Sequence record: NC_070991.1 | Length of the DNA stretch: 64,000 nucleotides | Source: Escherichia phage vB_EcoP_WFI101126 | Strand: one strand, 5' to 3' | Part shown: in pieces, positions 44,137-60,813 of the stretch | Layout: every line of letters starts with the position of its first letter | Position numbering within the stretch: position 1 is the stretch's first letter | Notes under the pieces: generated by a model | What the model saw: the letters and a program-made list of their open reading frames with translations, nothing else | What the model was told of the DNA's origin: nothing | The model's database searches: none | Made by a program: the position numbers and the translations under genes

Positions 44137-44346
44137 TTAATATTCCTTGATTGGGGATACCACAAAACCACCAAGAGGTGAGGTAAAAGATTTATGTAAG
44201 CTTATTTTGCTATAAATCTTTGGAGCCATCTTAAGAGCCTTCTTAAAACGACGAGCATCTTTACGAGTAGCAAAATGCTCTGTAACAGGTATAGAATGGT
44301 CTTGGTAGATATAATACATCACCGTCCAGTATTTTCCCATAATCAA
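44137..44346 (-). CDS. small basic protein, member of a 4-gene paralog family
   Basis: Shares F.TR..AR..KK ... S.H ... KV.Y pattern with 46201..46816 genes. Confidence 0.5.
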   Translation of the reverse strand: MIMGKYWTVMYYIYQDHSIPVTEHFATRKDARRFKKALKMAPKIYSKISLHKSFTSPLGGFVVSPIKEY

Positions 44347-45180: not shown

Positions 45181-45241
45181 ATATCTATATCCTTATAAAT
45201 AAGTTCGCCCCACCTCGGGTTAGGAGACAGGGCGGAGGTTT

Positions 45242-45853
45242 TTAGTAAGACACGTCACCACTTGAATGGGACATGTTGCTCTTGACGAAGTAGCAATACT
45301 TGCCAAGACCTTCATTAATTTCTTGAAGCATACTCTGATCGACAGGGTAGGATGCTAAATCGCCATCAAACTCATCCATCTTCTCAATAATACACATCAA
45401 GGTCATGCACATATCAGAGAGCATACCGTCCATATCCAGATCAGCATTACCCTCTGAGAACCAAGCATGGGAGAGGTAGTTAGCTGCTGTAGCATCCACC
45501 TTAACACAATGGTATCGCATACGCTCAGCAATACGATCTCCTACTTGTCGTGCGTAATCTTCCAGCTCATCAAACATACCATGAACACCCTGAAATCCTG
45601 CACCAGAGACATTCCAGTGGTAGTTCTTAGCTTTGATATGCAAGAGTTCCATGTTAGTTTGTAAGCAGCTTAGGATGTGTTCTAGGCTGTTTCCACTAAT
45701 CATACCCTGCATAGTTTCAAGGCGAGAGATTGAAAGCTCAGACCGGTCTAACATGTTATATTCTGCACGACCCATCTCAGGTAAATCAAAGACATTCTTA
45801 TGCATTTGGGTTTTCTCCATCAAGTTCAACTGAGTTAGCAACGTTACGTGCAA
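45242..45853 (-). CDS. Dps/ferritin-like protein (true start possibly 45820 or 45805)
   Basis: HWNVSGAGFQGVHGMFDELEDY matches the Dps ferroxidase-site pattern HWN..G..F..H..DE. Confidence 0.6.
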   Translation of the reverse strand: MHVTLLTQLNLMEKTQMHKNVFDLPEMGRAEYNMLDRSELSISRLETMQGMISGNSLEHILSCLQTNMELLHIKAKNYHWNVSGAGFQGVHGMFDELEDYARQVGDRIAERMRYHCVKVDATAANYLSHAWFSEGNADLDMDGMLSDMCMTLMCIIEKMDEFDGDLASYPVDQSMLQEINEGLGKYCYFVKSNMSHSSGDVSY

Positions 45854-46127
45854 TATTATCCATTACCTGCTGGGTAATTACGATGCAGTTCTGTGGGTCT
45901 ACTGACTTAGAACGCCCCATTTCAGGGTCATACACCTTAACTCGCTTAGCAGTTGAACCTGTAACCTGAAGAACCTTCAACAGATATCCCTGATTACCAA
46001 TAGACCAAGCAACAACATCACGATTCTTGATAAAGCGACCAAGCATATCACGATGATAAAACTGTTGCATCACCTTGGATTTTGTAATCTCTTCAGTGGG
46101 CGGGGCCACTTTACTCAAATCTAACAT
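45798..46127 (-). CDS. hypothetical protein (109 aa)
   Basis: ORF track. Confidence 0.45.
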   Translation of the reverse strand: MLDLSKVAPPTEEITKSKVMQQFYHRDMLGRFIKNRDVVAWSIGNQGYLLKVLQVTGSTAKRVKVYDPEMGRSKSVDPQNCIVITQQVMDNIARNVANSVELDGENPNA

Positions 46128-46200: not shown

Positions 46201-46410
46201 TCAGTAATAAATTACTTTAGACATAAAAGAACCCGAGCTAGGGTCTTCGTACCAGCGATGAATGTCAGCACTTTTAACAGTTCCTATTAGAGCTTTCATG
46301 TTCTTTTTAGCGACACGAGCCTCTTTGCGAGTGTTAAACAGTTTGATATTATCTTTACCTAAGTGTTGTTTCTGTTCCCAAACAACACGAACAGCCCACA
46401 TCTTTTTCAT
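46201..46410 (-). CDS. small basic protein, paralog family member
   Basis: Tandem with two further copies; conserved TR..AR..KK and C-terminal KV.YY. Confidence 0.5.
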   Translation of the reverse strand: MKKMWAVRVVWEQKQHLGKDNIKLFNTRKEARVAKKNMKALIGTVKSADIHRWYEDPSSGSFMSKVIYY

Positions 46411-46619
46411 TAGTAATGTACCTTTCCGCTGATATAAATACGACCAGAAGAATACTCTTTGGCCTTATGGATACTGATACTGTTGACCACGTCACCAATA
46501 AGCATAGTCTTTTTAAAATCTCTAGCTTGTTGGCGAGTGGGCAGTGCAGTCATAGTCATACCACCTGATGCCCACTTAATCTTTGCTAACCAAAATTGTC
46601 TCATAGTGATTGGTCTCAT
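46410..46619 (-). CDS. small basic protein, paralog family member
   Basis: As above; 1-nt overlaps between consecutive genes. Confidence 0.5.
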   Translation of the reverse strand: MRPITMRQFWLAKIKWASGGMTMTALPTRQQARDFKKTMLIGDVVNSISIHKAKEYSSGRIYISGKVHY

Positions 46620-46816
46620 TAATAATAAACCTTGCTGTTGGCAAAAAGAGCACCTTCGTTATTCACAATAGCTTTTCCTATTGTAATCTTACCTGACAGA
46701 CCTATCCCCTTAAAAAGCTTCTTAATTCGACGGGCGTGCTCTCGAGTATTAACAAAATCTACAGATTTTATATCACCTGTCTTGTTATCATGTACACGAA
46801 CAATCCACTTTTTCAT
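46619..46816 (-). CDS. small basic protein, paralog family member
   Basis: As above. Confidence 0.5.
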   Translation of the reverse strand: MKKWIVRVHDNKTGDIKSVDFVNTREHARRIKKLFKGIGLSGKITIGKAIVNNEGALFANSKVYY

Positions 46817-59619: not shown

Positions 59620-60813
59620 TTATTTTCCTAAAAATAATCCGCTCATAACACCATCCCACTCAGAGGACGGAATCACTGAATACTCCGAACTTTGGTCCAG
59701 AGTTCCACTACTAAATCGCTGAACAATGTTGTAGATGTTGAACAGGTCTTTAGCCTCGGCACGAATGCCGTAGATTAACCTGTTAGCTGTTCTCTCATTT
59801 TTAGACACGCGACGGGTAAAGTTAACCAAAAGATTATCACCTTTAAGTATCTCTGACCCATCTTTTACTAGATCGGGGTGCATCACTGGCAAGAACATTG
59901 AGTTGTTAACTCGCAATTCTGCTGTTTCGTCGTTCTCATAATGAATCCACTTAAAGTCTTCATCACGAAAGTGACCGCATCCATCTCTGTATGACTGTTG
60001 ACGCCAAGGCACTTGAAATGCTTCAGCGTATTTATCAGCCATGCCAACCGTAAATAGTGACGCTGGGAAAATACAAGCATCCCAATCGTTACCAACCAGA
60101 GTTGCTTTCGTTTCTCCCAAGAGGTTGGTGTAAGTGCTAACCATTCGTGAATAAACGTAAGCCTGAAGAATTGTCCAGCCTTCAACCAACCATTTATGAA
60201 GGAAGGTTTCAACTTGACTCTCTTCATCTTCACAATAGAAGGTTCGATCTAACATCAAATAGAACAGACAACGATCAGCAGGAACATTCTCAGTTGCTAC
60301 CCCCATAAAACCTTTCTCGTGCCAGCGTAAACAGGAGGGACGATCTTTGTCCACAAATGCTTCCATAGCTTCCAGTACAGCACGAGGTGTGGTTCGATGT
60401 TCAGGGTTTTTGTCGTTCCAACGTTCGATGTTATTTTTAAGCTCGCCTTCGTAATCAATAGCACCCCAACCTAAAGCTTCGGATACATGCTCTGCGTCAC
60501 GCCAACGTCTAAAACCTAACATCTTCATGTGAGTTCCGGAGTTCCAGATATGCTTGATTTTACACATATCCATCTCTCGGCTTAACAGGAACTCTTCCCC
60601 ATCAGCACTACGAACGTTAGCTTCTTCATGCCACACTCGAACGTGCATATTCCACCCATGAGTTGCCTCATACATGTTAGGGTCGAAGTATTCATCTTCG
60701 TCATCATCTTTATCAACGCCACCGTTATAGTTGCGAAGCTGAAGGAACCCATAACAAGGAGGGTTGACCGTTAAAACATTACCTTCAGTATCTTCTAATG
60801 TTACTGGAAACAT
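59620..60813 (-). CDS. hypothetical protein (397 aa), first large gene of the ligase operon
   Basis: ORF track. Confidence 0.45.
   Translation of the reverse strand: MFPVTLEDTEGNVLTVNPPCYGFLQLRNYNGGVDKDDDEDEYFDPNMYEATHGWNMHVRVWHEEANVRSADGEEFLLSREMDMCKIKHIWNSGTHMKMLGFRRWRDAEHVSEALGWGAIDYEGELKNNIERWNDKNPEHRTTPRAVLEAMEAFVDKDRPSCLRWHEKGFMGVATENVPADRCLFYLMLDRTFYCEDEESQVETFLHKWLVEGWTILQAYVYSRMVSTYTNLLGETKATLVGNDWDACIFPASLFTVGMADKYAEAFQVPWRQQSYRDGCGHFRDEDFKWIHYENDETAELRVNNSMFLPVMHPDLVKDGSEILKGDNLLVNFTRRVSKNERTANRLIYGIRAEAKDLFNIYNIVQRFSSGTLDQSSEYSVIPSSEWDGVMSGLFLGK

Follow-up and report, generated by a model that had tools for sequence, protein, structure and literature searches.

The podophage phiEco32, a prolate-headed "C3" phage, is the type of Kuravirus (Gordonclarkvirinae). 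Its sequence record (EU330206) describes one of its products, gp67 (ABY52868.1), as "DNA-binding protein; member of the Dps family." The orthologous protein of phage SU10, CDS67, contains a Dps domain and was assigned to the middle genes and to the genes common to the five C3 phages known at the time; mass spectrometry identified it as a 21.2-kDa protein (6 peptides, 35.8% coverage) in a preparation concentrated with PEG only, for which the authors warned that early and middle proteins may be contaminants (PMC4281155). A homologue from the Proteus phage Privateer was found in virions purified by a CsCl step and equilibrium gradients, with its function called unverified (PMC7881722). These published proteomics show that phage Dps is made during infection, and we found no biochemical or genetic study of any phage Dps in the literature. 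The identification of the gene as a dps is already known and not new, since EU330206 annotates gp67 as Dps (an annotation that dates to 2008 and the phiEco32 genome paper) and both the SU10 and the Privateer papers discuss homologues.

We analyzed the orthologous locus in a 64-kb stretch (64,000 nucleotides, hereafter the window) of the genome of Escherichia phage vB_EcoP_WFI101126 (NC_070991.1). Judged from its sequence, this phage is a phiEco32-like Kuravirus: the region has 92-95% DNA identity to Escherichia phages MN05, NJ01, Paul, and others, and the layout, in which the plus strand carries the structural genes and the minus strand the early and middle genes, fits the phiEco32 genome type. 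The window's Dps protein is 96% identical to phiEco32 gp67 and is encoded, as in phiEco32 and SU10, by a 564-nt coding sequence in the same middle-gene module, with the same neighbors (gp68 upstream; gp66, thioredoxin, and ThyX downstream). The few substitutions relative to gp67 fall mostly in a variable N-terminal extension (EMGRAEYNML here, EIGRDSYSML in phiEco32), and the window differs further in carrying a second copy of the small hydrophobic downstream ORF (phrog_9296 twice).

Gene boundaries and constraint

The original prediction placed the gene at positions 45242 to 45853. An ORF does occupy that interval on the minus strand and encodes 203 aa when counted from its TTG, but the start needs correction: translation almost certainly begins at the ATG at 45805 and not at the TTG at 45853 (Table 1). 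We prefer the ATG because it is preceded by a ribosome-binding site, because the homologues all begin with MH[NK]N in the alignment, and because the 48 nt between the two candidates (45806..45853) form the 3' end of the upstream gene in a different frame; on the same three grounds we rule out the TTG. Phage Paul has a ribosome-binding site annotated at the corresponding position, and the orthologous coding sequences of phiEco32, Paul, and EcM-vB1 likewise measure 564 nt. Read from the ATG, the predicted product has 187 aa, a mass of 21.3 kDa, and a pI of 4.7 (4.73). Pairwise dN/dS values against phiEco32, Paul, and EcM-vB1 range from 0.04 to 0.11, which marks strong purifying selection, and the gene is therefore constrained and functional.

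A terminator-like hairpin downstream of the gene is a candidate only, as the number of such sites in the consensus scan was close to the shuffle expectation. The late-promoter motif TAATGTAT occurs at 8 sites within the window, none of them near the Dps gene.

Table 1. Features of the Dps locus, in positions of the window
Feature	Position	Strand	Basis or remark
Dps-family (mini-ferritin) gene, orthologue of phiEco32 gp67 / SU10 CDS67	45242..45805	-	ORF, start/RBS, profiles, AF2, dN/dS
Lineage-specific N-terminal extension, residues 1-45	45671..45805	-	Alignment, AF2
Ferroxidase-centre codons, including W64	45524..45619	-	Alignment, pattern
H63 codon	45617-45619	-	Ferroxidase ligand
H75 codon	45581-45583	-	Ferroxidase ligand
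D79 codon	45569-45571	-	Ferroxidase ligand
D90 codon	45536-45538	-	Ferroxidase ligand
E94 codon	45524-45526	-	Ferroxidase ligand
Ribosome-binding site GGAG	45815..45818	-	9 nt ahead of ATG 45805; upstream sequence ttgatGGAGaaaacccaaATG
Upstream gene, phiEco32 gp68 orthologue, phrog_10984, 109 aa	45798..46127	-	ORF, PHROG; 8-nt overlap with Dps start
Terminator-like hairpin (candidate), 11 pairs (7 G-C), weak T tail	45206..45234	-	Starts 8 nt past Dps stop; consensus scan only

Dps fold and ferroxidase site

The gene encodes a Dps-family protein, and the Dps/ferritin-like assignment made in the original prediction is upheld by Pfam, PHROG, and PDB matches, by the AlphaFold2 (AF2) fold, and by the ferroxidase ligands. 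An HMM search, one of the checks proposed at the time, placed the ferritin-like domain PF00210 above its cut-off (30.8 bits versus 24.5; E of 3.3e-7). The match spans helices A-B alone (residues 71-124 of the 203-aa ORF), which indicates that the C-terminal half is divergent in sequence but not in predicted fold. The phage family phrog_3636 matched over the full domain with an E of 3.6e-54, and 55 of the 56 phmmer matches among PDB chains were to Dps or ferritin, the best being Mycobacterium smegmatis Dps2 (E of 2.5e-9). The phage-clade profile retrieved 3373 representatives at E<=0.001, and those that carry names are Dps proteins.

Structure prediction, likewise proposed as a check, gave a Dps-type four-helix bundle as an AF2 monomer with a pLDDT of 89.3 (from a 79-sequence alignment). 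The predicted helices are A (41-65), B (71-98), C (125-150), and D (154-176), with a short BC helix (107-112) in the long crossover loop, the feature that distinguishes Dps. All of the best 50 Foldseek matches in the PDB were Dps or Dps-like, and the closest Dps structures superimposed with an rmsd of 1.1-2.2 Å over ∼134-143 residues (1.1 Å for Bacillus anthracis Dlp-2 and 1.3 Å for M. smegmatis Dps2). These two proteins (2z90 and 4m35 for Dps2; 1jig for Dlp-2) are the closest solved relatives by sequence as well, with E of 2.5e-9 to 4e-8 and TM scores of 0.8-0.88 on the target, and they share with the phage protein the motif HWNV.G...H...DE....D..AER. They differ from it in being cellular and stress induced, at 23-25% identity, and in having neither the N-terminal helix nor the Cys/Met enrichment of the phage protein. 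Escherichia coli Dps (1dps), the host's own protein, belongs to the same family and its ligands align, at 19% identity.

The peptide singled out in the original prediction as a match to the Dps ferroxidase site, HWNVSGAGFQGVHGMFDELEDY, is encoded at 45554..45619 on the minus strand, and a search of the window in all six frames with the pattern HW.[IVM].G.{5}[LV]H.{3}[DE], modeled on the PROSITE Dps signature, gave a single occurrence. Misalignment of the ligands with Dps had been named beforehand as the counter-case, and all five ligands were found in register: H63, W64, H75, D79, D90, and E94 align with H31, W32, H43, D47, D58, and E62 of Listeria innocua Dps and with H51, W52, H63, D67, D78, and E82 of E. 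coli Dps (the numbering of the two reference sequences used reproduces the published ligand numbers). All 37 phage-clade sequences, 24 of the long and 13 of the short form described below, keep the five ligands and the Trp without change. Across 42 cellular-like Dps sequences only the D79 position varies (E in 35, D in 6, and Q in 1). The acidic residues of the ferritin-like pore could be aligned only in part. We consider it quite probable that the window's Dps has ferroxidase activity.

Many Kuravirus GenBank records carry the label "integrase" for this gene, which we reject, as PF00210 is the sole Pfam match and no tyrosine- or serine-recombinase domain is found; the 188-aa "integrase" of phage IME267, for example, is 81% identical to the window's Dps and carries PF00210. 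The wrong label could cause strictly lytic therapy candidates to be flagged as temperate.

Distribution and genomic neighborhood

The original prediction called Dps proteins uncommon in phages. This is fair overall, with relatives detected by tblastn (E<=1e-5) in 137 of 50,697 phage records, but it does not hold for the prolate-headed C3 podophages (Gordonclarkvirinae and Grimontviridae), where the gene is present in every lineage sampled. Nearly all of the 137 records are C3 podophages, accompanied by a few Streptomyces and Synechococcus phages, and 486 contigs in IMG/VR encode a Dps relative. The proteins of the phage clade come in two sizes. Long forms of 169-196 aa are found in Kuravirus and metagenomic relatives. 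Short forms of 144-156 aa come from phages placed mostly in Grimontviridae, namely Salmonella phage SE131, the Proteus Privateervirus group, and phages of Cronobacter and Aeromonas. The short-form proteins of SE131 (gp090), Privateer (QIN94861), and Aeromonas phage BUCT695 belong to the same clade as the window's Dps (32-45% identity; tblastn E of 1e-11 to 1e-24), have identical ferroxidase ligands, and are encoded in the same genome module with a gp68-like gene present; they differ in lacking the 45-aa acidic N-terminal extension and the Tyr-ended C-terminal tail and in having a short basic N-terminal tail instead.

In a profile search of 1.84 billion cluster representatives only 7 matched at E<=1e-30, followed by a gap and then by the bulk of cellular Dps from ∼1e-20, and a second profile search showed the same break. 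The phage clade, at E<=1e-31, is cleanly separated from cellular Dps, at E>=1e-17. The E. coli Dps equivalog model NF006975 of NCBIfam scored 34.4 bits against a cut-off of 114. The low identity to E. coli Dps and the equivalog score below cut-off indicate an old gene of the lineage and not a recent acquisition from the host, and recent capture of a host dps is ruled out by these two observations together with the gap between phage and cellular sequences.

We also considered whether phage Dps might be fused to capsid-morphogenesis proteins and rejected the idea, since among the best 80 IMG/VR loci the Dps ORF stands alone in 79 (median, 146 aa). One IMG/VR locus (L087) has a 523-aa ORF with an N-terminal Dps domain; neither its C-terminal 350 aa nor the neighboring genes gave an informative PHROG or Pfam match. 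A 1156-aa match with 20 repeats (P0124) was discarded as a relative because it is a translated tandem repeat.

The Dps gene lies within a middle-gene module for replication and nucleotide metabolism. In Kuravirus the order is primase/helicase, exonuclease, in some cases a nucleotidyltransferase, dCTP deaminase, small ORFs, the gp68-like gene, Dps, one or more small membrane ORFs, thioredoxin, and ThyX, and synteny with dCTP deaminase, thioredoxin, ThyX, and (in relatives) NrdD/NrdG is kept in Kuravirus, a metagenomic relative, SE131, Privateervirus, and Libingvirus. The metagenomic relative, whose Dps is 47% identical to that of the window, retains the Kuravirus gene order and continues with NrdD and NrdG. 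In SE131 the Dps start overlaps the ThyX stop, and in Proteus phage P59 and in BUCT695 the Dps gene is flanked by the gp68-like gene and NrdD.

A conserved neighbor of Dps is the gp68-like gene, which lies directly upstream in Kuravirus, in the Proteus phages P59 and Privateer, in the Aeromonas phages BUCT695 and LAh_8, and in Cronobacter phage A24, and which in most lineages reaches or overlaps the start of Dps. The two genes occur in the same lineages, with a nearly identical distribution (129 phage records with the gp68-like gene versus 137 with Dps). Linkage is usual but not strict, as the two lie 1.3 kb apart in SE131, and their co-occurrence may mean no more than that both belong to a shared core genome. 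In the metagenomic relative the gp68-like protein is 83% identical to that of the window, compared with 47% for Dps, and is thus the more conserved of the two. AF2 predicts a small five-stranded beta-barrel with a C-terminal helix, at a pLDDT of 68.5; searches against Pfam and NCBIfam gave no match, and Foldseek found nothing in the PDB at E<=0.001, the best hits being generic Tudor/KOW/PWWP/SH3 barrels (best E of 0.014).

One reading of this neighborhood is that Dps acts as an auxiliary metabolic gene, hoarding host iron and donating it to iron-dependent enzymes of deoxynucleotide synthesis, whether of the phage or of the host. The intact ferroxidase center would suit such a store, nucleotide-metabolism genes are co-located with Dps throughout, and in relatives it adjoins NrdD/NrdG, the Fe-S, glycyl-radical ribonucleotide reductase. 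However, the window has no ORF as large as the 706-aa NrdD of the metagenomic relative, and we found no other iron enzyme among the window genes examined, yet the gene is strongly constrained. The link to oxygen-sensitive enzymes therefore holds for the relatives only. Dps cores are small (∼500 Fe), Dps proteins are classically detoxifiers and not donors, and little time would be available in a short lytic cycle for both storing and releasing iron. We therefore regard a role as iron store or donor as improbable.

The long form and its possible roles

The long form has several features beyond the Dps core. A median of 60 residues precedes the first ferroxidase His in long-form phage proteins, compared with 32 in short-form phage proteins and 34 in cellular Dps, so that the long forms have ∼28 extra residues in this region. 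The N-terminal extension, at a pLDDT of 61-76 (versus 89.3 for the model), opens with the conserved sequence MH[NK]NxFDLP, continues with an acidic linker that is variable, and includes an additional helix predicted with lower confidence at residues 19-37. At the other end is an 11-residue tail, SNMSHSSGDVSY in the window's Dps, that ends in Tyr in 15 of 24 long-form sequences. The protein is also rich in sulfur-containing residues. The window's Dps has 5 Cys (residues 47, 100, 133, 138, and 171) and 16 Met, and long-form medians are 7.2% Met and 2.7% Cys, compared with 4.2% and 0% in the cellular Dps proteins examined and with 2.65% and 1.0% in long ORFs of the window; no Cys position is invariant among the long forms. 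The N-terminal extension, the C-terminal Tyr, and the Cys/Met richness are unexplained by the canonical Dps mechanism and may point to partner interaction or redox chemistry.

The charge of these tails bears on the possibility that the protein is mainly a DNA-binding and -compacting factor that condenses phage DNA during replication or before packaging, as E. coli Dps does on the nucleoid. DNA is bound by E. coli Dps through a Lys-rich N terminus, and many Dps proteins, including those of L. innocua and Agrobacterium tumefaciens, do not bind DNA. The gene does lie among replication genes, and "DNA-binding protein" is the label used in phiEco32, Paul, SGF2, and others, as well as the name of PHROG 3636, but the label comes from the family name and not from experiment. 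The short-form relatives have a small basic N-terminal tail (MLTARPKR..., MNKLPLTGRK...; median net charge of +3). In the long form, in contrast, the median net charge of the N-terminal tail is -1, and the window's Dps, at a pI of 4.7, has a net negative N-terminal segment (4 K+R versus 7 D+E in 45 residues), a C-terminal tail free of Lys and Arg, and hence no Lys/Arg-rich tail of the type that binds DNA in E. coli Dps. The adjacent gp68-like protein could tether DNA instead, since it is predicted to form a Tudor/KOW/PWWP-like barrel, a fold that is often nucleic acid binding, but its fold matches are nonsignificant and the model is of limited confidence. Because the protein and both of its tails are acidic, the long form is unlikely to bind DNA directly in the manner of E. 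coli Dps. The "DNA-binding protein" label thus lacks support where this acidic form is concerned, and we think it unlikely that DNA compaction is the main function.

The published proteomics raise another possibility, that Dps is packaged in the virion, where it would shield the packaged DNA against iron-driven damage or be delivered into the next host along with the genome. The Privateer homologue, which is 41% identical to the window's Dps, was detected by mass spectrometry in CsCl-purified virions (PMC7881722), and SU10 CDS67 was present in a phage preparation; the latter was PEG concentrated and not CsCl purified, however, and DNA polymerase and thioredoxin were found in the same sample (PMC4281155). 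In a cryo-electron microscopy and mass spectrometry study of purified SU10 virions, gp20-24 are named as ejection proteins among the structural proteins listed, and gp67 goes unmentioned in the text and supplements examined (PMC9509320). Foldseek searches against BFVD found Dps-fold domains within larger proteins from uncultured Caudovirales, and three of these proteins bear the database name "Prohead protease." Against packaging, the gene sits in the middle (replication) module and not in the structural module in every lineage examined, and a stable, possibly iron-loaded 250-kDa shell could copurify with phage. On balance, packaging in the virion seems to us very improbable, the least probable of the alternatives discussed here.

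We favor a different reading, that Dps assembles into a shell that detoxifies iron and peroxide and is produced along with the phage replication and nucleotide-metabolism enzymes, and we consider this probable. Beyond family membership, the intact ferroxidase site, constraint, expression, and module location, the steps of this scheme are taken from established Dps biochemistry. Twelve subunits would assemble into a hollow shell, and each two-fold interface would bind Fe2+ through H63, H75, and D79 from one subunit together with D90 and E94 from the other. The Fe2+ would be oxidized, with H2O2 as the preferred oxidant, and stored as a ferric core. Both Fenton reagents would thereby be removed while phage DNA is copied and deoxynucleotides are made. 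The setting would be one in which the flavoenzyme ThyX and the redox protein thioredoxin adjoin Dps, joined in relatives by the oxygen-sensitive NrdD/NrdG. ThyX is known to produce H2O2 in an oxidase side reaction, and this side reaction, together with the oxygen sensitivity of NrdD/NrdG in the relatives, makes a local protective role reasonable. The roles suggested in the original prediction, protection of replicating DNA or management of iron and oxidative stress, are plausible and fit the gene neighborhood, and we hold any specific biological role with much less confidence than family membership or ferroxidase activity.

The peculiarities of the long form could mean that it is a specialized version of such a detoxifier, with features that fit it to a phage partner or target it into the prolate capsid, although we consider this unlikely. 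If it were so, one candidate partner would be the translationally coupled gp68-like beta-barrel, acting as a tether to DNA or the replisome, and another would be the phage thioredoxin, with gating by redox state. Hints of capsid targeting come from the Privateer virion proteomics and from the Dps folds found within BFVD proteins that bear the name "prohead protease"; if true, capsid targeting would be a phage parallel to the ferritin-like cargo held within the HK97-fold shells of encapsulins.

Apart from its bearing on function, the analysis yields a corrected start for the gene, an "integrase" label that is wrong and a "DNA-binding" label that is doubtful, a set of lineage-specific oddities, and a conserved gp68-like neighbor. 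The wider meaning of the gene lies in its strong constraint in a whole lineage of prolate podophages, which poses the question of why a lytic cycle of 10-20 minutes needs a mini-ferritin of its own.

Small genes around the Dps gene

The gene directly upstream of the Dps gene, an orthologue of phiEco32 gp68 that overlaps the Dps start, is the more strongly conserved of the two (83% identity versus 47% for Dps in the same relative), and its distribution among phages is nearly equal to that of the Dps gene. The product is predicted to fold into a small beta-barrel followed by a C-terminal helix, and the model gave no significant structural match. Immediately downstream of the Dps gene lie two hydrophobic ORFs of phrog_9296, which are tandem paralogues. 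Because phiEco32 is annotated with only a single ORF of this type (gp66), the window carries a local duplication or insertion at this point relative to that phage. The block containing the Dps and thioredoxin genes is further flanked by four paralogous ORFs of phrog_4939 (65-69 aa, all on the minus strand) that share a TRKxARxxKK motif and a terminal tyrosine; three of the four are arranged in tandem, with stop/start overlaps with adjoining genes of 1 nt or 4 nt (46813-46816).

Features of the window and of one IMG/VR locus
Feature	Position	Strand	Basis or remark
gp68-like gene, phrog_10984	45798-46127	-	8-nt overlap with Dps start
phrog_9296 ORF, 59 aa	45001-45180	-	PHROG match
phrog_9296 ORF, 61 aa	44806-44991	-	PHROG match
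phrog_4939 ORF	44137-44346	-	PHROG match
phrog_4939 ORF	46201-46410	-	PHROG match
phrog_4939 ORF	46410-46619	-	PHROG match
phrog_4939 ORF	46619-46816	-	PHROG match
TAATGTAT sites	9048, 21454, 24495, 25249, 34360	+	Octamer match
TAATGTAT sites	34289, 38443, 40702	-	Octamer match
Run of large ORFs	52362-60813	-	Position and size
523-aa ORF, N-terminal Dps domain	L087 55-1626 (IMGVR_UViG_3300025889_005021)		PF00210, 2.5e-17

Late-promoter octamers and a run of large ORFs

In SU10, the late promoters that the phage sigma factor uses are reported to have the consensus octamer TAATGTAT (PMC4281155). This octamer occurs at 8 sites in the window against 2.45 expected, a count reached in none of 100 shuffles. 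Phages Paul and phiEco32 carry an annotated cluster of ATP-grasp, glutamine amidotransferase and amidoligase genes, to which the run of large ORFs in the window corresponds by position and size.

Dps folds within larger proteins

BFVD contains Dps-like folds inside proteins of 290-763 aa from uncultured Caudovirales (A0A6J7XDU5, A0A6J7WPK9 and A0A6J7WIS1, among others). Three of these proteins bear the database name "Prohead protease," which hints at putative Dps domains fused to capsid-maturation proteins. In the L087 ORF, the ∼350 aa that follow the Dps domain had no match in Pfam or PHROG, and the adjoining ORFs were uninformative. A library match to the Dps profile, the 1,156-aa protein P0124, scores against the ferroxidase-motif region; it consists of ∼20 near-identical 57-aa repeats and has the appearance of tandemly repeated DNA that was translated, and we rejected it as a Dps relative.

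The integrase label in Kuravirus records

The Dps orthologue is named "integrase" or "putative integrase" in many Kuravirus GenBank genomes, including those of IME267 (protein P0004), ES17, KBNP1711, EC.W14-3 and pEC-N1203-2Af.1. We reject this identity, since a ferritin-like domain is the sole domain in the mislabelled orthologue. The annotation error could falsely imply a temperate lifestyle for these phages.
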